The position numbers and the translations under genes were made by a program. DNA of 34,255 nucleotides, from IMG/VR virus record IMGVR_UViG_638341087_000014, positions 1 to 34,255 of that record; one strand, written 5' to 3'. This document shows positions 309 to 7,348 of the stretch, one piece after another. Source of the stretch: a virus. Its lineage: Duplodnaviria; Heunggongvirae; Uroviricota; Caudoviricetes. Below the pieces are notes generated by a model. That model made no database searches and had not been told where the DNA came from. It was given only the letters and a program-made list of their open reading frames with translations. The stretch's first letter is position 1; every line of letters starts with the position of its first letter.

Positions 309-946
309 TCTGTAAATATTTTTATAAAAATAATGCCCACACACAGCATAAAACAAAAAGTATCACAGATAAAAAAGGAGCGTAATGTGCAGATTTGTTG
401 TTTTCCATATTTACTCACTTTAACATAATCAATATTGATATGGTTGTTGTTTCGGTGGTTTCAAACGAGATGTTATGGTGATCTGGTAAAATTGCATAAC
501 ATTAAAATTTAATTTATCTAATCGCTTTTAATAATAAGCGTTGTGTTTATCCCAGCAATCTGTTGTTTGACTTTTATTCCATTAATGTAGGGGCTTTACA
601 CTGGAACCAGTTTATTTATACTTTATACGCCAGCCTGAACAACTGGCACCTGCTGCGCCAGCAGAGACAACCGATGGCGCACAATACCAAACATCACAAT
701 TCTGATACCGACCTTGCCAGCAGGCACGGGCGGCGTTCTCATGCATTCAAATCTGACTGGTTCCAGCATGATCCATGCACTGAAGAACAGCCGAATGGCT
801 GATTCAGAACTACCGCAGACGTGGTTACGAGTTTCAGAAAGACCTCAGTCTCGACTTCCGACACTGGATCATCTCAGTCAGACTGCCTTACTCTGAACGC
901 CCACCGCGTCCGTCCCGCACATTCCAGCAACGGATCTGGAGGTAAC

Positions 947-1690
947 GTGCGGGTATTGCTTCGACCTGTTCCGGTACCGGAACTCGGGCTGGTGGTCCTT
1001 AAGCCTGGTCGTGAATCCATGCAGGTATTTCATAACCCTCGAGTGCTGGTGGAGCCGGAACCGAAAAGCATGCGCGGTCTGCCGTCCGGAGTTGTTCCTG
1101 CCATTCACCAGCCGCTGGCGGAAGACAAATCATTGCTGCCATTTTTCAGCAATGAGCGGGTAATTCGTGCTGCCGGTGGCACTGGTGCACTGTCTGACTG
1201 GCTCCTGCGTCATGTTAAATCCTGCCAGTGGCCTCATAGTGACTACCATCACAGTGAAATCGTCATACATCGTTATGGTACCGGAGCGATGGTGTTGTGC
1301 TGGCACTGCGACAACCAACTGCGTGACCAGACATCCGAATCACTCGAGCAACTTGCTCATCAAAACCTGTCTGCATGGATGATTGACGTCATACGCAATG
1401 CAATGAATGGTACGCAAGAGCGGGAATTATCGCTGGCTGAGTTATCCTGGTGGGCGGTCTGCAATCAGGTGGCGGACGCGCTACCGGAGGCAGTATTACG
1501 TCGTTCGTTGGGATTACGTACGGAAAAAATCCGCTCTGTGTACCGCGAGAGCGACATCGTACCGGGAGAACAGACAGCCACCAGCATACTGAAGCAGCGC
1601 ACAAAAAATATGTGCTACGCTCACGCCACAGCAACAGAACTCACCACAGGAAAAGACGTGTCAGTATTGCCGTTGATCCGGAGTCTGTGA
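947..1690 (+). CDS. DUF968-like phage protein, N-terminal portion (ends at in-frame TGA 1688-1690)
   Basis: Long ORF in same frame as the downstream conserved Cys/His region; GTG at 947 preceded by GGAGG. Start is uncertain (track ORF begins at 821; ATG at 1019 is an alternative). Confidence 0.45.
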   Translation: MRVLLRPVPVPELGLVVLKPGRESMQVFHNPRVLVEPEPKSMRGLPSGVVPAIHQPLAEDKSLLPFFSNERVIRAAGGTGALSDWLLRHVKSCQWPHSDYHHSEIVIHRYGTGAMVLCWHCDNQLRDQTSESLEQLAHQNLSAWMIDVIRNAMNGTQERELSLAELSWWAVCNQVADALPEAVLRRSLGLRTEKIRSVYRESDIVPGEQTATSILKQRTKNMCYAHATATELTTGKDVSVLPLIRSL

Positions 1691-1723
1691 ATCTTTCATG
1701 AAGCGAGTAAACGTCGCCGTTGG

Positions 1724-1987
1724 GTGAATGAGAAATACACGCGTTGGGTAAAGACACAGCCGTGTGCGTGTTGTGGTAAGCCAGCAGACGATCCCCATCA
1801 CGTGATTGGTCATGGTCAGGGCGGGATGGGGACAAAATCTCACGATATTTTCACGCTACCGCTGTGTCGGGAGCATCACAACGAGCTTCATGCGGACCCG
1901 CTGGCGTTCGAAGAAAAGCATGGTTCCCAGATTGATTTAATTTTTCGTTTTCTTGATCACGCCTTTGCAACCGGCGTGCTCGGGTAA
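1724..1987 (+). CDS. DUF968-like phage protein, conserved C-terminal Cys/His-rich portion
   Basis: Motif WVKTQPCACCGKPADDPHHV...LCREHHNELH; same reading frame as 947-1690, separated by a single TGA and 11 sense codons. Confidence 0.5.
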   Translation: MNEKYTRWVKTQPCACCGKPADDPHHVIGHGQGGMGTKSHDIFTLPLCREHHNELHADPLAFEEKHGSQIDLIFRFLDHAFATGVLG

Positions 1988-1999
1988 AAGAGGTTACTG

Positions 2000-2359
2000 A
2001 TGCGTATAGAGTTTGTTTTGCCTTACCCGCCAACGGTGAACACCTACTGGCGACGTCGTGGCAGTACATATTTTGTATCAAAAGCCGGTGAGCGTTATCG
2101 CCGTGATGTGGCGCTCATTGTTCGCCAGCAGCGACTGAGATTAAACCTGTCCGGAAGGCTGGCAATAAAAATTACTGCAGAGCCACCGGATAAGCGCCGC
2201 CGTGACCTGGACAATATTCTGAAAGCACCACTGGATGCGTTGACGCATGCGGGGTTGCTTATCGACGACGAGCAGTTTGATGAAATCAATATTGTGCGCG
2301 GTCAGGTCGTTCCTGGTGGTCGGTTGGGCGTGAAGATTTACAAAATTGAAAGTGAGTGA
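2000..2359 (+). CDS. rusA: Holliday junction resolvase RusA
   Basis: 119 aa; RusA hallmarks (PPTVNTYWRRRG, DKRRRDLDNILKAPLDALTHAGLLIDDEQ); AAAGAGG before the ATG; sits immediately upstream of the Q-like gene as in lambdoid nin regions. Confidence 0.9.
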   Translation: MRIEFVLPYPPTVNTYWRRRGSTYFVSKAGERYRRDVALIVRQQRLRLNLSGRLAIKITAEPPDKRRRDLDNILKAPLDALTHAGLLIDDEQFDEINIVRGQVVPGGRLGVKIYKIESE

Positions 2360-2367
2360 GCGTAAAT

Positions 2368-2922
2368 ATGATATACCCGGAAATTACAGGCAAAAGCGGT
2401 GAGCATTTACGCCTGAAAACGCTGGAAAGTGTCTGGCTCCAGGGGAAACTGCGTATGTGGGGGCGTTGGTCGTATATTGGCGGCGGTAAGACGGGAAATA
2501 TGTTCAACCAATTACTGACCTCTAAAAAGCTGACAAAAACGGCAATTAACGAGGCGCTCCGGAGGATGAAAAAAGCGGGTCTGGACAAACCTGAACTTGA
2601 GGCTTTTTTGCGGGATATGATCAACGGCAATCAAAAAAGCTGGCTGGCACATTGTACCGATTCAGAGGCGTTAATAATCGACAGGGTTATTGGTGAAGCC
2701 CTGGCCGGTTATCCCGGGCTGCTCAATGTCCTGAGTCAGCGTTATGTGGGGCGGGGGATGACTAAGCGCAAAATGGCTGAACTGCTGAATGATGCACACC
2801 CGGAATGGAGTTTAAGAACCTGTGAAAGACGCATTGAGCATTGGCTAAAGGTGGCAGAATTTATTTTGTACAAACCAATGGTTATGGCTTTTTGTATAGA
2901 GAAAAAAGTTATTGCTTTTTGA
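2368..2922 (+). CDS. Putative late-gene antiterminator (Q-like), assigned mainly by position
   Basis: About 184 aa, directly after rusA and directly before a strong intrinsic terminator, the lambdoid Q/pR'/tR' arrangement. I do not confidently recognise the family; GTG at 2356 is an alternative start. Confidence 0.5.
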   Translation: MIYPEITGKSGEHLRLKTLESVWLQGKLRMWGRWSYIGGGKTGNMFNQLLTSKKLTKTAINEALRRMKKAGLDKPELEAFLRDMINGNQKSWLAHCTDSEALIIDRVIGEALAGYPGLLNVLSQRYVGRGMTKRKMAELLNDAHPEWSLRTCERRIEHWLKVAEFILYKPMVMAFCIEKKVIAF

Positions 2923-2999
2923 CGTAAAAACTGCTTCAATGCCGGTACGCTTCGCAAAGCTGTACCGCGAGGCGAATAGCAGACATGGACATTTGAAAG

Positions 3000-3025
3000 A
3001 GCCCGCTTTTTGCGGGTTTTTTTTT
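3000..3025 (+). terminator. tR'-like intrinsic terminator downstream of the Q-like gene
   Basis: GCCCGC-TTTTT-GCGGG stem-loop followed by a 9-T run, about 80 bp after the Q-like stop. Confidence 0.6.
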
Positions 3026-3148
3026 ATGCCTGAAAAACGGTACAGGACGTTAAACGCGCTGATGGTTGCGAATACCGGTCTTTCAGCTTGCTGGCTTTTT
3101 CGACAAGAGCTATTGGTATGTCACGTTAACCAGAAAAGGAAAAAAGAC

Positions 3149-3346
3149 ATGCTAAAACAGCAGGATATGACCGAAACTGCCAGAGTGGTGTTTAATGAAT
3201 TAAGCGTCACCGAACCGGCGACCGTCGGGGAAATTGCGCAGAATACGTACCTTTCACGCGAACGCTGCCAGTTAATACTGACTCAGCTTGTTATGGCGGG
3301 TCTGGCAGATTATCAGTTCGGTTGTTACAGACGCCTTCCGCAGTGA
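3149..3346 (+). CDS. Small hypothetical protein (65 aa), possible helix-turn-helix
   Basis: ATG at 3149 preceded by AAAGGAAAAAAG; translation MLKQQDMTETARVVFNELSVTEPATVGEIAQNTYLSRERCQLILTQLVMAGLADYQFGCYRRLPQ; the stop lies inside a terminator hairpin. Confidence 0.4.
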   Translation: MLKQQDMTETARVVFNELSVTEPATVGEIAQNTYLSRERCQLILTQLVMAGLADYQFGCYRRLPQ

Positions 3347-3357
3347 AGGCTTTTTTA
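3333..3357 (+). terminator. Intrinsic terminator
   Basis: GCCTTC-CGCAGT-GAAGGC stem-loop followed by TTTTTTATTT. Confidence 0.5.
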
Positions 3358-3496
3358 TTTGTGGTAATGGGCGGCTGGTGGGTGTTAGCGGCACCTGCCA
3401 GCCATCTGCTCATGCGTTGGGGTCACAAGCAAACCTCAGGCCCATCTGCTTTGCGCAAAAGCGGTATGAGCCTATCAGAGAAGTGCTTATTGATCT

Positions 3497-4543
3497 ATGG
3501 CTAATACTGTAAAAATATCCAGTTGTGAGTTAATCAACGCTGATTGCCTGGAATTTATCCAGACTTTACCGGAAAACTCTGTCGATCTGATAGTCACAGA
3601 CCCGCCATACTTTAAAGTGAAGCCCGAGGGCTGGGATAACCAGTGGAAGGGCGACGATGATTACCTGAAATGGCTGGATCAGTGTCTGGCGCAATTCTGG
3701 CGGGTACTGAAACCTGCCGGAAGTCTCTACCTGTTCTGTGGTCATCGCCTGGCATCTGATACCGAAATCATGATGCGTGAGCGCTTTAATGTGCTGAACC
3801 ACATTATCTGGGCGAAGCCGTCCGGACGCTGGAACGGATGCAACAAGGAAAGCCTGCGGGCGTATTTCCCGGCAACAGAGCGCATTCTGTTTGCTGAACA
3901 TTATCAGGGGCCCTACCAGCCCAAAAATGACGGCTATGTGGCACAGGGGCGCAAGCTTAAACAGCACGTCATGGCCCCGCTGATTTCTTACTTTCGTGAT
4001 GCGCGTGAATCACTGGGAATAACGTCAAAACAGATAGCGGAAGCCACCGGAAAGAAAAATATGGCTTCGCACTGGTTTGGTGCCAGTCAGTGGCAGTTAC
4101 CGAACGAAGCTGATTACAGAAAACTGCAGGCATTGTTTGCGCGTGTTACAGCAGAAAAGCATCAGCGCGGGGAACTGGAAAAGCCACACCACCAGCTGGT
4201 CAGCGCATACAGTGAACTGAACCGTCAATACGCCAGCCTGCTGGAAGAGTACAAATCTTTGCGGCGTTATTTTTCCGTATCAGCTGCCGTTCCGTATACG
4301 GATGTCTGGACGCACAGGCCTGTGCAGTATTATCCGGGCAAACATCCCTGTGAAAAACCGGCGGATATGTTGCGGCAGATAATTGAGGCCAGCAGTCGCC
4401 CCGGTGATTTGGTTGCTGATTTTTTTATGGGGTCAGGTTCCACAATAAAGGCAGCATTGTCACTGGAGCGTCGGGCTATTGGTGTGGAACTGGATGAAGG
4501 GCGATTTAATCAGACTGTAACTGAAATAAAAAATATCTGTTAA
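3497..4543 (+). CDS. DNA methyltransferase, beta-class N6-adenine/N4-cytosine type (orphan, no restriction partner in window)
   Basis: 348 aa; N-terminal DPPY motif (LIVTDPPYF) and C-terminal FxGxG AdoMet motif (DFFMGSGST): motif IV before motif I. Confidence 0.85.
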   Translation: MANTVKISSCELINADCLEFIQTLPENSVDLIVTDPPYFKVKPEGWDNQWKGDDDYLKWLDQCLAQFWRVLKPAGSLYLFCGHRLASDTEIMMRERFNVLNHIIWAKPSGRWNGCNKESLRAYFPATERILFAEHYQGPYQPKNDGYVAQGRKLKQHVMAPLISYFRDARESLGITSKQIAEATGKKNMASHWFGASQWQLPNEADYRKLQALFARVTAEKHQRGELEKPHHQLVSAYSELNRQYASLLEEYKSLRRYFSVSAAVPYTDVWTHRPVQYYPGKHPCEKPADMLRQIIEASSRPGDLVADFFMGSGSTIKAALSLERRAIGVELDEGRFNQTVTEIKNIC

Positions 4544-4623
4544 TTGTGCATGGTGTTATTTCTGATAATTCCGGAATAATAAAAATATATATGTATATTT
4601 ACAATTGCTGACGAGCATTTTTA

Positions 4624-4651
4624 TTGAAAGCGTCCGGGTTATTCGTATTAT
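4624..4651 (+). promoter_or_regulatory. Candidate sigma70 promoter for the tRNA cluster
   Basis: TTGAAA (4624-4629), 16-bp spacer, TATTAT (4646-4651), about 30 bp upstream of the first tRNA. Confidence 0.3.
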
Positions 4652-4683
4652 TGTGCCGCGTCAGAGCAATGATGCAATGGACA

Positions 4684-4760
4684 GGCCCTTTAGCTCAGTT
4701 GGTCAGAGCGAGCGACTCATAATCGCCAGGTCGCTGGTTCAAGTCCAGCAAGGGCCACCA
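4684..4760 (+). tRNA. tRNA with CAU anticodon, ileX-like (tRNA-Ile2, lysidine type), often auto-annotated as tRNA-Met
   Basis: 77 nt cloverleaf folded by hand: acceptor GGCCCTT/AAGGGCC, T-arm GCTGG-TTCAAGT-CCAGC, anticodon loop CTCATAA, 3' CCA encoded. Confidence 0.8.
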
Positions 4761-4761
4761 G

Positions 4762-4838
4762 CCGCCACTAGCTCATCCGGATAGAGCATCAACCTTCTAA
4801 GTTGATGGTGCGAGGTTCGAGTCCTCGGTGGCGGGCCA
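4762..4838 (+). tRNA. tRNA-Arg (anticodon UCU)
   Basis: 77 nt: acceptor CCGCCAC/GTGGCGG, anticodon stem-loop TCAAC-CTTCTAA-GTTGA, T-arm CGAGG-TTCGAGT-CCTCG, CCA encoded. 5' end could shift by 1 nt. Confidence 0.8.
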
Positions 4839-4840
4839 GT

Positions 4841-4916
<76 letters not shown>

Positions 4917-4919
4917 TAT

Positions 4920-4994
<75 letters not shown>

Positions 4995-5246
4995 GAGCGA
5001 GATAGGTAGTTTTTTGGCACTGACACATTTTATGTAGGGCGTTTTTCCTGACTCCTTACCTCGCCCTGTACTGTAATGAGTGATATCGGTTGCAGTACCA
5101 GTGCTGTTTTTTACGCCACCGGAATGGTGCATTATTGGTAGAGATTTGCAATGTCTCTGGCAGGGGCCGGTGATGCATCATCCCGATGTTGTAAACATCG
5201 CTCAGATAACGTTGAAATCAATCAAACCCAGGAAATACATCTTTAA

Positions 5247-5270
5247 CCGCCGCACCAGGCGGTTTTTTTT
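5247..5270 (+). terminator. Intrinsic terminator downstream of the tRNA cluster
   Basis: CCGCC-GCACCA-GGCGG stem-loop followed by an 8-T run. Confidence 0.55.
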
Positions 5271-5646
5271 ATTCTTAATTCGAAGAAAAAGAAAACACGG
5301 ACATTGATAATGTCCGCGTGGCAATGCCATGTAAGTTAGCGATGAATATGGCGCAAAAAAAAGCGCGGCCGTCGGATTAACGCCGCGGGACAAAGTCCGT
5401 GAAGAATCATAAGCATCTGTCTCCTCCGGGAGACGAGTTGATATTACTAAGCTTTAAAAATGGTTTAAATCCTCAGATTAACCTTAATTTTCGGTAAGTC
5501 TTATTTCATTTCTTCGCGCCACGCCCGGCGCACATCAAAAAACCACAGAGCCTTTCAGGGGTGAGCTTACGGGATGGTCAGTGTGACTTTCTCTGTGGGC
5601 TGGTCACCCCCGGGCGCAGGCTCACCCACTAAAAGGAAAAGTCACG

Positions 5647-6072
5647 ATGTTTGGTATTTTCAAAAAGAAAACCCGCAAGGCCATTACCGAAGTGAAGAAG
5701 ATGGAGAACCGCGACGCAGTGGAGGCGACCGTCTGGGGCGCGTATTCCATTGCATATGCTGACGGCACCTGCGATGCGAAAGAAATCGCTGTGCTGGAGA
5801 AAACCATTGCAGCACTTCCTGCTTTTGCGCCGTTCTCGGGTGAGATTGCACAAATGAGTGCAAATATCCGCGCCCGTTATGAAGCGTCGCCGCGCTCTGC
5901 CAATGCTGAAGCCCTTCGCCAGCTGGCTGATGTTGCCGGTACTGATGATGCAGTTAATGTACTGTGCCTGTGTCTGGATATCGCAGACCAGGATGGCATT
6001 GGTCCGGATGAAGAAGCGCAGCTCAAGAAAATTGCTCAGGCGCTGCAGTTACCGCTGGAGCAGTACCTGTGA
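5647..6072 (+). CDS. TerB-like (tellurite-resistance TerB family) domain protein, 141 aa
   Basis: Pattern resembling TerB (two helical repeats with conserved AxxDG...EE/DEE, e.g. SIAYADGTCDAKEIAVLEK and LDIADQDGIGPDEEAQLKKIAQAL); AAAAGGAAAAG before ATG 5647. Family call from remembered pattern, not a search. Confidence 0.6.
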   Translation: MFGIFKKKTRKAITEVKKMENRDAVEATVWGAYSIAYADGTCDAKEIAVLEKTIAALPAFAPFSGEIAQMSANIRARYEASPRSANAEALRQLADVAGTDDAVNVLCLCLDIADQDGIGPDEEAQLKKIAQALQLPLEQYL

Positions 6073-6221: not shown

Positions 6222-6269
6222 CACCACACAAAAGGCATCTGCGGGTGCCTTTAACGGGGTGTTTTTTAC

Positions 6270-6296
6270 GGGCCGCTGGTGGCCCTTTTTTATTTA
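6270..6296 (+). terminator. Intrinsic terminator immediately upstream of the lysis genes
   Basis: GGGCC-GCTGGT-GGCCC stem-loop followed by TTTTTTTATTT; the holin ribosome-binding site follows directly. Confidence 0.6.
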
Positions 6297-6310
6297 CAGG
6301 AGAAAAAAGT

Positions 6311-6703
6311 ATGTCTGAACCCTTATCCGGTTCCGGCACGGCTGCGGCGCTCGGTGGGGCGACGGTGTACGGGCTGTTTACCGGAACGGATTTCGGGATT
6401 GTGTTTGGTGCGTTCGCCGGGGCGTTATTTGTGGCAACGATGCCGCAGGCGCTTTCAGCCTGGCGTGTGGCGGCGCATTTTCTGGTGTCGTTCATTATCG
6501 GCGTGCTGGGCGCAGAGGTTCTGGCATCCTGGCTGGTAAAGCATACAGAGTTTGACGGTGCACCTGTCGACGCATTGTGTGCAGTACTGGTGTCAGTGGT
6601 GTCGGTGAAGATTCTCTCGTTCATCCACCAGCAGGATATTGCATCGCTGGTGTCCGGCCTGTTCTCCCGCCTGCGGGGTGGAGGAGGCGGCAATGTTAAG
6701 TAA
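6311..6703 (+). CDS. Putative holin (three predicted TM segments)
   Basis: 130 aa, AGGAGA before ATG 6311, three hydrophobic helices, first gene of a cassette ending in an endolysin. Confidence 0.55.
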   Translation: MSEPLSGSGTAAALGGATVYGLFTGTDFGIVFGAFAGALFVATMPQALSAWRVAAHFLVSFIIGVLGAEVLASWLVKHTEFDGAPVDALCAVLVSVVSVKILSFIHQQDIASLVSGLFSRLRGGGGGNVK

Positions 6704-6968
6704 CCTTCCCGGATTACTGAATGTGGCGTTATGCACGGTTATCGTGCTGACGCTCTTTTTTTATCGTCGCCGTGATTCCAGGCATAAACCGCTGATGTCA
6801 TGGCTGGCCTGGTTGCTGATGCTGCTGTATGCCTTTGCGCCCCTCAGCTATCTGTGTGGTCGCCCGTTAGCAACGGGCTGGCTGGAAGTGTTTTTTAATC
6901 TGTTGTTCTGCGTGCTGGTAATACGCGCACGCGGGAACGTCGCAAGAATCTTTCCATTGTTGAGGTGA
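6693..6968 (+). CDS. Putative second holin / holin-associated membrane protein
   Basis: 91 aa, three hydrophobic segments, GGAGGAGG before ATG 6693, overlaps the previous gene by 11 nt, directly upstream of the endolysin. Confidence 0.45.
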   Translation: MLSNLPGLLNVALCTVIVLTLFFYRRRDSRHKPLMSWLAWLLMLLYAFAPLSYLCGRPLATGWLEVFFNLLFCVLVIRARGNVARIFPLLR

Positions 6969-6970
6969 AT

Positions 6971-7348
6971 ATGTCGGGTAAATTCAGATTTAGTCGTCGC
7001 AGTGAAAAAAATCTGGAGGGCGTTAAACCACAGCTGGTTGCTGTCGTTCGCCGTGCGCTGGAGCTGACGGAGGTTGATTTCGGTATTACGGAAGGGCTGC
7101 GCACGAAAGAACGCCAGAAACAGCTGGTCGCGGAAGGGAAAAGCCAGACCATGAACAGCCGCCACCTGACCGGTGATGCGGTGGATGTTGTTGCCTGGGT
7201 TGGCAGCCAGGTGTCATGGGACTGGCCTCTGTACGAGAAAATCGCGCAGGCATTTAAGCAGGCTGCCGCAGAGCTGGGAACCGCCATCGAATGGGGCGGG
7301 GACTGGAAAACACTGAAAGACGGGCCTCACTTTCAGTTGAAACGCTGA
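6971..7348 (+). CDS. Endolysin, peptidase M15 family (L-alanyl-D-glutamate peptidase type)
   Basis: 125 aa; zinc-peptidase motifs SRHLTGDAVD and GGDWKTLKDGPHFQ; GAGGTG before ATG 6971. Confidence 0.8.
   Translation: MSGKFRFSRRSEKNLEGVKPQLVAVVRRALELTEVDFGITEGLRTKERQKQLVAEGKSQTMNSRHLTGDAVDVVAWVGSQVSWDWPLYEKIAQAFKQAAAELGTAIEWGGDWKTLKDGPHFQLKR

Follow-up and report, generated by a model that had tools for sequence, protein, structure and literature searches.

The question raised by positions 2923 to 4543 of IMG/VR record IMGVR_UViG_638341087_000014 (Caudoviricetes), analysed here over its whole length of 34,255 nt (the window), is how a DNA methyltransferase at the head of the phage late genes is controlled, and what the small open reading frame (ORF) upstream of it does. 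A sequence-only reading of this DNA had described an orphan beta-class methyltransferase, made during lytic growth for the self-protection of progeny DNA, and a preceding 65-aa ORF with a helix-turn-helix (HTH)-like segment that might form a controller-protein arrangement. All of these elements were found where that reading had placed them; what did not stand was the generic orphan, which is a member of the M.EcoGII family, and the controller idea. A conserved leader between the two genes had gone without mention. On balance, we favour the view that the first cassette of this lambdoid late operon encodes a pan-adenine methyltransferase under layered control by terminators, a bistable leader and a winged-helix effector.

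An M.EcoGII-type methyltransferase

The methyltransferase matched Pfam N6_N4_Mtase (PF01555) over residues 29-340 (E 1.4e-43, 149.8 bits vs. a cut-off of 26.7). Motif IV (DPPY, residues 35-38) precedes the target recognition domain (TRD) and motif I (FxGxG, residues 310-314, here F-M-G-S-G), which is the order of the beta class; DPPY instead of SPPY is, we assume, consistent with N6-adenine specificity. The catalytic halves are separated by approximately 130 central residues, and the PDB relatives, which include M.RsrI, M.MboIIA, CcrM and DpnA, align to the two halves only. No restriction gene was found among the methyltransferase neighbours (Pfam, window) or in the related loci with annotation that were examined, and PADLOC called a type II/orphan methyltransferase and nothing on the neighbours, in agreement with the orphan status proposed earlier.

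The alignment with M.EcoGII was full length, with the TRD included and gap-free (294 of 348 residues identical, 84%; 92% similar; 54 substitutions and two one-residue gaps), and an identity error of about 1% is possible because the reference, Supplementary Table S1 of the SUPREM paper (PMC11551740), was machine-read. The enzyme of phage 1720a-02, named by Murray et al. 2018 (PMC5778455) as the carrier of a very similar enzyme, was 93% identical. By alignment the window enzyme belongs to the M.EcoGII family. M.EcoGII and M.EcoGI, from prophages of E. coli O104:H4 C227-11, share with it the DPPY...FxGxG order, the four-helix TRD and the condition of prophage-borne orphan. M.EcoGII methylates adenine in any context in double-stranded DNA, single-stranded DNA and RNA (Murray et al. 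2018, PMC5778455); with 84% identity to such an enzyme no target motif has to be predicted, and there are strong grounds to expect non-specific N6-adenine activity from the window enzyme.

M.EcoGII by itself is fully active and non-specific in vitro, it is not expressed by lysogens, and its constitutive production sickens cells (PMC5778455). Self-protection of progeny DNA is the rationale offered in the literature for this family prototype, and it is plausible for the window enzyme too. In the methylome of O111 Shiga toxin-producing E. coli (STEC), such prophage enzymes were listed as M.EcoGI/GII homologues with a predicted specificity of 'nonspecific', and strains with 92-94% similar homologues showed only GATC, CTGCAG and CRARCAG methylation in culture (PMC6602927). 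A literature search found no native induction or methylome data for EcoGII-type enzymes. Gong et al. 2023 (PMC10810198) described a prophage 'DNA adenine methyltransferase' that proved to act on 16S rRNA; it was considered as an identity for the window enzyme and rejected as a different gene, since it is of the MT-A70 type (DPPW) and is gp5, near the left end of its prophage.

A conserved leader precedes the methyltransferase

The 138 nt in front of the methyltransferase AUG are the most constrained part of the locus, above the synonymous sites of the small ORF and of the methyltransferase: nucleotide identity to distant loci was 0.70-0.79 (gaps counted as mismatches) vs. 0.33-0.54 at third positions of the codons in the two flanking genes. 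With a covariance model that contained the two uncontested hairpins only, exactly one match was obtained in the window (3359-3499, 126 bits). Scanning 2800-5200 on both strands against Rfam 15 (4227 families, including all SAM/SAH classes) gave no leader match at E<=1, the hits being tRNAs and chance-level matches elsewhere. Among 5426 complete E. coli genomes, 2708 had at least one match to the leader, 2733 to the methyltransferase and 2824 to the small ORF; none of the leader matches listed in these genomes has an annotated feature under it.

A coding spacer was rejected. ORFs exist at 3288-3512 and 3322-3504, and their frames are broken by single-nucleotide indels between lineages, so that the leader holds no conserved reading frame. 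The frequent G-U pairs put the leader structure on the + strand, and the unpaired junction bases are highly conserved as well. There is no Shine-Dalgarno sequence (GGAG, GAGG or AGGA) within 15 nt of the methyltransferase AUG.

Covariation supports two alternative leader folds

Two folds, named S2 and S1, share the helices P2 and P4 and differ in the remainder (Table 1). In S2, P1alt encloses P2, and a long-range helix, the sequestor, covers the start region. Pairing in S2 reached 94.8% of the alignment cells, compared to 23-44% in slid controls, and was reached by 0 of 500 shuffles, a control that ignores phylogeny. Nine S2 pairs showed two-sided changes, four of them in P2, where whole-helix replacements keep the pairing (GACAGUGAGGAUG/CAUCCCCACUGUC in locus L161 and GACCGAUGAGUG/CACACAUCGGUC in L173). 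P1alt was paired in all 45 full-length sequences. The sequestor pairs 74/136 and 75/135 (numbering of alignment A2) change between clades from A-U/G-C to G-C/A-U. Single-sequence folding of the window leader gave S2 as the minimum free energy (MFE) structure (-61.4 kcal/mol, z -3.8), and the start-region bases (-12 to -2) were paired with a probability of 0.7-1.0 in the window, Kluyvera, Providencia and L190 leaders.

S1 (P1, P2, P3 and P4) forms a three-way junction, with which neither P1alt nor the long-range helix is compatible, and 85.8% of its cells were paired. P3 pair 51/77 (alignment A2) is C-G, U-A or A-U inside the E. coli-type clade, which is independent covariation for S1. Covariation thus supports two mutually exclusive folds, which would be alternatives for the same RNA. 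Two further helices were rejected: P5 (3465-3471 with 3485-3491), only 75-77% paired and weak in the Providencia clade, and a local ATCAG/CTGAT helix beside the AUG, in which a frequent T-to-C change is never compensated.

Linkage of the small ORF, the leader and the methyltransferase

Starting from the small ORF, 24 species-representative genomes were found, and all but one of them (23 of 24) encode the methyltransferase at a distance of 150-195 nt on the 3' side. The exception, L021 (4170-4302), is a remnant with a truncated small ORF and a decayed leader and no methyltransferase. In the reverse direction, all 80 IMG/VR loci found via the methyltransferase carry the leader, and all but four carry the small ORF; those four have little or no sequence upstream of the leader. 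Anchoring on the Providencia enzyme gave 80 loci, approximately 64 of them with the full leader, a distant subgroup with a shorter one, and at least the short form in all but one; four of these 80 loci (L162, L167, L168 and L172) have no small ORF. A DNA-pattern scan of IMG/VR, which sampled chiefly Providencia-type and more distant leaders, returned eight true leaders, each with a methyltransferase on its 3' side (8/8; 62-70% amino acid identity). The M.EcoGII-family enzyme travels as a three-part cassette that heads the late operon: winged-helix gene, leader and methyltransferase. Together with the tRNA genes, the small ORF and the methyltransferase form a module between Q and stx in phiP27, in many Stx2 phages (Stx2a included) and in 1720a-02.

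Natural variants of the cassette were also found. The small ORF has been lost, with leader and methyltransferase kept, at L162, L167 and L172; at L024 it is a pseudogene with a premature stop (L024:4001-4060) beside an intact leader and methyltransferase. A deletion at L168 (1444-1503) took the small ORF and most of the leader. At L031 (2903-3003), P3/P1' of the leader was lost by deletion between two ATCTGCT repeats. L031, L168, L021 and L024 could serve as natural mutants for the model proposed below.

The leader in distant phages

Enzymes 50-61% identical to the window methyltransferase were found by tblastn against phage genomes in N15, phiKO2, PY54, the Vibrio phages VHML, MAR and ST2-1pr, and the Aeromonas phages phiARM81ld and phiO18P. 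The covariance model detected the leader directly before the methyltransferase in phiKO2 (66.6 bits), PY54 (58.5 bits), VHML (49.0 bits), N15 (35.1 bits) and an Enterobacter N15-like phage (33.7 bits), and before a Com-like zinc-ribbon ORF in ST2-1pr (38.4 bits) and ARM81ld (23.2 bits). In these last two phages the AUG that ends the leader is the start of the Com-like ORF (PF10122, 27.9 bits vs. 22.9), which overlaps or precedes the methyltransferase; the start-covering helix is kept even where the com-like gene, not the methyltransferase, comes next. An intrinsic terminator stands before the leader in all seven phages; N15 and phiKO2 have it annotated as the terminator of the late promoter.

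The distant leaders also bear on the two folds. In ARM81ld the 5' strand reads CGUGGC in place of AUGGGC, and GCCACG has replaced both of the alternative partners; VHML has GUGGGC in this strand, with GCUCAC and GCCCAC as the alternative partners. The joint change of a strand and both partners is what a bistable switch would predict, from independent events that are few. MFE folds gave the S1 junction for N15-type leaders and S2 for the lambdoid and Providencia types.

Just past the tR'-like terminator of the window, the sequence TTTTTATGCCTGAAAAA (3017-3040) matches the N15-like junction 'terminator T-run - GTGCCTGAAAATGGGCG' at which the leader begins (compared in L201, L204 and L206, around 1355-1380). 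By this match, the lambdoid arrangement looks like an N15 arrangement that has taken up the small-ORF cassette at the leader's 5' edge. In the P2-like phage phiO18P (L205, 899-2547), the M.EcoGII-like enzyme (51% identity) is encoded between holin and muramidase, with a DksA/TraR-type zinc-finger gene two genes upstream of the methyltransferase, a different regulatory context; the covariance model found no leader in this region.

The leader might instead be an element of RNA processing or stability, for instance an RNase III site formed by the P1alt and P2 hairpin of approximately 20 bp, with the small ORF as an unrelated moron. Domain I is indeed a long, nearly perfect hairpin of RNase III substrate size, and the small ORF resembles a moron, with the promoter-like block before it, a Shine-Dalgarno sequence of its own and the terminator at its end; it is also dispensable at a few loci. 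However, the leader is conserved in sequence besides structure, including its unpaired junction bases, both alternative partners of the 5' strand covary, and the start-covering helix persists before com-like genes; moreover, N15-like phages have kept the small ORF next to the cassette, although they are arranged differently. We regard a processing element as rather improbable. The chances are slighter still for a metabolite riboswitch that responds to SAM, SAH or some other signal derived from a nucleotide, and that would tie production of the methyltransferase to the supply of cofactor with no part for the small protein. The enzyme is SAM-dependent, and a three-way junction with highly conserved junction sequences competes with the start-masking helix; against this, the leader resembles none of the 4227 Rfam families, SAM/SAH classes included, it also stands 5' of com-like genes, and the short-form leaders of one clade lack the junction.

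The small ORF encodes a predicted winged-helix protein

The 65-aa ORF has an AAGGA Shine-Dalgarno sequence 9-13 nt upstream of its start, and its dN/dS was 0.03-0.13 against relatives from approximately 20 Enterobacterales species, with synonymous sites near or at saturation. By these measures it is a real gene under purifying selection. Longer database calls of this ORF (94-106 aa) extend into a region deleted in many lineages. The protein falls in PHROG 331, a family of unknown function (E 1e-37), and its match to Pfam TrmB (PF01978; 18.0 bits vs. a gathering threshold of 25.6, E 0.0026) is below threshold, so that the RefSeq name 'TrmB family transcriptional regulator' reflects a mere weak winged-helix resemblance. 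The NCBIfam search gave no family for it or for the Q-like gene, and a PDB sequence search returned one chance-level match (E 0.63). It has two cysteines (C40 and C59) and no PF10122 match, compared to the four of the Com zinc ribbon (Zn_ribbon_Com).

AlphaFold2, run on a 27-sequence alignment, predicted an H-H-H-beta-beta arrangement (best model pLDDT 89.7; the other four 57-65). With Foldseek the model resembled (TM 0.7-0.82) the winged-helix domains of IclR-type regulators, the N-terminal dimerisation domains of O-methyltransferases, SelB and OhrR. The winged-helix domain of SelB binds RNA. The protein is thus predicted to be a winged helix, a nucleic-acid-binding type of fold as the sequence-only reading had supposed, and with its retention in related loci a regulatory or accessory role remains likely. 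Helix 3 (RCQLILTQLVMAGL) is near invariant even where the remainder of the protein is approximately 50% identical. At the DNA level, positions 3263-3306 (CGCTGCCAGTTAATACTGAC...ATGGCGGG), which encode helix 3, keep approximately 90% nucleotide identity in E. coli copies of which the rest is unmatched by blastn; this hints at an extra constraint beyond the protein sequence.

Distant homology to the small ORF was found for N15 gp51, phiKO2 gp51 and PY54 ORF59 (hhalign probability 91.4%, E 9e-7). They lie just upstream of the late promoter, adjacent to the leader/methyltransferase cassette, which makes the winged-helix gene an old companion of the cassette.

The controller-protein arrangement suggested earlier would make the small ORF a transcription factor similar to C proteins, with an operator near its own gene, that times methyltransferase transcription. 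C proteins such as C.PvuII and C.AhdI are of the Xre HTH type, are tied to a restriction gene and a C-box, and lie upstream of the modification gene. The window has in common with C-protein restriction-modification systems a small DNA-binding-type protein gene directly 5' of, and tightly linked to, a modification gene, with a presumed timing role. Some RefSeq copies are named as transcriptional regulators of the TrmB family, and the promoter-like block 5' of the small ORF (Table 1) could be an autoregulated promoter. All lambdoid-type lineages examined have this block with an unchanged 17-nt spacing, among them those with a small ORF of only approximately 41% identity. TATTGG without the T at -7 is a poor sigma-70 match, and the block was uncalled in the promoter scan; its function could be that of a moron promoter, either weak or activated, or of an operator. 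Two other readings of the TTGCTG block were discarded: a sigma-54 promoter, since the upstream GG is not conserved, and a minus-strand promoter, for want of a -10 element.

By contrast, the differences from C-protein systems are several. The protein is a predicted winged helix without an HTH_3 (Xre-type) match at E<=0.01 (Pfam), and no restriction gene accompanies it, which places it outside the controller-protein family. As for a C-box, the block at 3087-3124 is conserved, but no palindrome in it is kept across lineages (the CAGA-N4-TCTG repeat is lost in the Providencia type). The promoter scan gave nothing from the small ORF to the methyltransferase, and the spacer covaries like RNA, with G-U pairs, unlike protein-binding DNA. 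A C protein-like factor is therefore very doubtful.

The small protein could also be a subunit that binds the methyltransferase and alters its activity, dimerisation or choice between DNA and RNA, instead of a regulator that contacts nucleic acid, with the leader acting alone or sensing something else. In the Foldseek ranking, the N-terminal winged-helix dimerisation domains of the SAM-dependent O-methyltransferases RedM, PigF and DsyB came first, the net charge of the protein is approximately -1 to 0 (counted from the sequence), and its helix 3 (CQLILTQLVMAGL) is hydrophobic and invariant. The MT-A70 methyltransferase of a Stx prophage needs an adjacent small partner that redirects it to 16S rRNA (PMC10810198), and M.EcoGII methylates RNA in vitro (PMC5778455). 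However, M.EcoGII needs no partner for full, non-specific activity in vitro, the Foldseek scores are weak, and some intact cassettes have no small ORF. We judge a methyltransferase subunit unlikely, and keep the protein as a regulator of the leader as the preferred reading.

The locus and its late-operon context

The window covers the early-to-late junction of a lambdoid prophage (Table 1). The Q-like gene matched DUF1133 (E 1e-104) and Phage_antitermQ (29.2 bits vs. a cut-off of 26) in Pfam, and PHROG 753 'anti-termination protein Q-like' (E 5e-80). The hexamers and spacing of the candidate late promoter PR' are kept at loci where Q is only 77% identical; the consensus promoter scan did not call it, and from sequence and position we infer that it is PR'. 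The tR'-like hairpin (-16.5 kcal/mol, z -4.4) was matched in stability by 0 of 200 shuffles; it was missed by a simple terminator scan and identified via the folding-energy calculation. An equivalent GC-rich hairpin with T-run stands 5' of the cassette in 25 of 25 aligned related loci, and also in N15-like, Vibrio and Aeromonas phages, and tR' is the point where homology begins between phages with different Q genes. The order of a lambdoid Q-dependent late operon (Q, terminator, late genes on the same strand) is present, with the promoter as its candidate member.

Table 1. Features of the window referred to in the text.
Feature	Position	Strand	Basis
DUF968/HNH gene, split in two ORFs	821-1987	+	profile match
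RusA gene	2000-2359	+	profile match
Q-like late antiterminator gene, 188 aa	2356-2922	+	Pfam, PHROG
Candidate late promoter PR' (TTGCTT 2912-2917, 17-nt spacer, TG 2932-2933, TTCAAT 2935-2940)	2912-2940	+	sequence inspection
tR'-like intrinsic terminator (12-bp GC-rich hairpin 2995-3023, nine U)	2995-3025	+	folding energy
Promoter-like block (TTGCTG 3088-3093, exactly 17 nt, TATTGG 3111-3116, then TATGTCAC)	3087-3124	+	lineage comparison
65-aa ORF	3149-3346	+	ORF list, dN/dS
t2, terminator-like hairpin (3333-3350) then T6; holds the TGA stop of the small ORF (3344-3346)	3333-3356	+	terminator scan
Structured 5' leader of the methyltransferase mRNA, 138 nt, candidate bistable translational switch	3359-3496	+	covariance model, conservation
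Leader domain I (P1alt enclosing P2)	3367-3413	+	
P1alt (S2)	3367-3371 with 3409-3413	+	
P1 (S1)	3368-3372 with 3440-3444	+	
P2 hairpin (S2 and S1)	3373-3384 with 3392-3403	+	
P3 (S1)	3407-3414 with 3424-3431	+	
Sequestor helix, 5' strand (GGUC, AAGC); same bases as the 3' arm of P3	3421-3430	+	
Long-range helix, outer (S2)	3421-3424 with 3492-3495	+	
Long-range helix, inner (S2)	3427-3430 with 3485-3488	+	
P4 (S2 and S1)	3448-3452 with 3458-3462	+	
Sequestor helix, 3' strand (GCUU, GAUC), nt -12 to -2 before the AUG	3485-3495	+	
Methyltransferase ORF, 348 aa	3497-4543	+	Pfam
Four tRNAs	4684-4994	+	
TerB-like gene	5647-6072	+	profile match
Holin gene	6245-6703	+	profile match
M15 endolysin gene	6965-7348	+	profile match

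The second terminator, t2, has a hairpin of -8.9 kcal/mol (z -2.0), and the stop codon of the small ORF does lie inside it, as described before. The hairpin covaries across Enterobacteriaceae and is absent in the Providencia type; t2 is convincing as a terminator in the E. coli type only. The promoter scan found no promoter-like site on the + strand of 2923-4543, and nothing sigma-70-like from tR' to the methyltransferase start. With the gene downstream of Q and tR' and on the strand of the lysis genes, Q-dependent late expression is the natural reading of this, and the lytic production supposed by the sequence-only reading would follow from position.

A short RNA predicted between PR' and tR' (approximately 80 nt, 2944-3025) has a computed structure of two hairpins (-33.8 kcal/mol, z -4.5). 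Rfam gave sub-threshold matches of this RNA to IsrK of Salmonella Gifsy-1 (19.8 bits vs. 50, E 0.23) and to the Trp leader, and it may be a distant analogue of the terminated late-leader RNAs lambda 6S, StxS and IsrK. Identity with StxS was rejected, since the Q/PR' type differs, and PMC7547250 mentions no methyltransferase.

Other observations concern the neighbouring genes. The halves of the DUF968/HNH gene (821-1690 and 1724-1987) match profile positions 1-61 and 89-171, and in E. coli TUM1881 (L002:1642-2688) there is a single gene of 1047 bp; a frameshift or internal stop is likely, which would mean a pseudogene or a sequencing error. Downstream of the methyltransferase, a promoter-like site (TTGAAA-16-TATTAT, 4624-4651) stands 5' of the four tRNA genes (together 4624-4994), which are CAT (tRNA-Ile/ileZ in the annotation of relatives), TCT-Arg, TGT-Thr and TCC-Gly. 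This cluster sits in the slot of ileZ-argN-argO and stx of Stx phages, where a promoter between tR' and stx2 drives the tRNAs (Sy et al. 2020). The TerB-domain gene (PHROG 632 'tellurite resistance', E 4e-65) lies between the tRNAs and holin, the stx position, and is preceded by terminator-like hairpins at 5245-5264 and 5418-5435.

A model for the control of the methyltransferase

The model starts from what was observed: the identities and order of the genes, the terminators, the linkage of the parts, and the conservation and covariation. Transcription from PR' would end at tR' in the lysogen, and read-through or local transcription of the small ORF would end at t2. Any leader RNA made would fold with its start region masked, S2 being the default, and translation would be off. 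In the alternative three-way junction S1, P3 would hold the upstream segment and free the start region. Upon induction, the Q-modified polymerase would pass both terminators, and the winged-helix protein, the kinetics of folding or some ligand would throw the switch and so allow translation of the methyltransferase. The 65-aa winged-helix protein would be the most likely effector or accessory factor of the leader switch, analogous to Com of phage Mu. The enzyme would then be made during phage DNA replication and packaging, with most progeny adenines methylated and many adenine-sensitive restriction systems resisted. An enzyme harmful to the cell makes sense of the block of its expression at several levels (two terminators, no Shine-Dalgarno sequence, the leader). 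Non-specificity, timing, the logic of the leader and the winged-helix role are the conditional parts of this model.

A stronger form of the model is that the leader belongs to an undescribed class of bistable cis-regulatory RNAs that gate pan-adenine methyltransferases or a Com-like gene, with the winged-helix protein as the trans-acting effector and as a convergent, non-homologous counterpart of Mu Com. This stronger form is tentative, and we place it somewhat short of an even chance.

Several observations weigh against the model. Enzyme activity and timing at this locus are read from homology and position, with the small error in the M.EcoGII identity mentioned above, and PR' is a candidate. 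Since M.EcoGII also methylates RNA in vitro, DNA protection may not be its sole role. The T-run of t2 is degenerate outside the E. coli type. In the leader, the inner part of P3 and helix P5 are poorly conserved, and the covariation is in large part a difference between two major clades, which leaves few independent events. Loss or decay of the small ORF in otherwise intact cassettes means that it is not strictly required. Finally, one of the five AlphaFold2 models was confident, the Foldseek E-values were approximately 1e-3, and a net charge this close to zero is unusual for a nucleic-acid binder.

Relation to known systems

The enzyme family, its late-operon placement and the self-protection idea are already known. 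The M.EcoGII papers examined, PMC5778455 included, contain no description of the upstream small ORF or the leader. Phage 1720a-02, cited in PMC5778455, carries all three parts of the cassette between Q and stx. Compared to the papers examined, what is new is the structured leader, its candidate two-state start-masking design, the linked winged-helix gene and the spread of the cassette across lambdoid, N15-like, Vibrio and Aeromonas phages; the leader is also absent from Rfam and from RefSeq annotation.

The closest parallel is the com-mom operon of phage Mu. Mom is a toxic, late, adenine-modifying anti-restriction enzyme, and Com activates mom translation by binding the mRNA near a stem-loop that masks the start (PMC6483171). 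In Mu-like prophages, com homologues precede non-specific adenine methyltransferases (com-hin1523/hia5/nma1821; PMC3299994). The window resembles com-mom in what would be a late, host-toxic, adenine-modifying anti-restriction enzyme, in the small protein gene immediately 5' on the same transcript, and in an RNA structure that would mask the start. ARM81ld and ST2-1pr even carry a true Com-like gene between the leader and an M.EcoGII-like methyltransferase; these Com-like genes inside the Vibrio and Aeromonas cassettes give the parallel a concrete footing. The parts differ. The small protein is a two-cysteine predicted winged helix, not a four-cysteine zinc ribbon, and its RNA binding would hold by analogy; the enzyme is beta-class, unrelated to Mom and also different from the Dam-like Hin1523 group (alignment of PMC3299994); the leader is 138 nt with two competing folds instead of a single stem-loop; and in the E. 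coli type a terminator stands between the two genes. The gene order and a predicted, covariation-supported masking helix are those of the com-mom type of control, and regulation of that type may be supposed by analogy. We infer that a toxic modification enzyme of the late phase is here kept in check at several levels, as in Mu, by parts that are not related to those of Mu.

Two other comparisons are more distant. With lambda 6S, StxS (PMC7547250) and IsrK late leaders the locus shares the order of Q, a constitutive late promoter (a candidate here), a short structured RNA and a strong terminator, with the cassette right after tR' like stx; it differs from them in the DUF1133 type of its Q and in a PR'-tR' RNA of approximately 80 nt.

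T4 Dam, P1 Dmt and VT2-Sa Dam are phage orphan methyltransferases, GATC-specific, mostly alpha-class, encoded in early regions and thought to be anti-restriction; VT2 Dam is mentioned in PMC6602927. The window enzyme is likewise a phage-borne orphan adenine methyltransferase, but it is predicted to be non-specific and is encoded by the first late gene.

Implications

M.EcoGII is a standard tool for the footprinting of chromatin and protein-DNA contacts. On its natural regulation, the prototype papers give only silence in the lysogen and toxicity on expression. The slot of the cassette is that of the Shiga toxin gene in Stx phages. If the model is true, it would explain how a temperate phage carries a methylase of every adenine without harming the lysogen, it would add a common unannotated regulatory RNA to E. 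coli annotation, and it would be a second independent instance of the com-mom logic of Mu. It also predicts that the virion DNA of many lambdoid, Stx and N15-like phages would be heavily N6-methylated, which would bear on restriction evasion, on sensitivity to type IV systems that depend on N6-methyladenine (m6A) and on long-read sequencing of phages.

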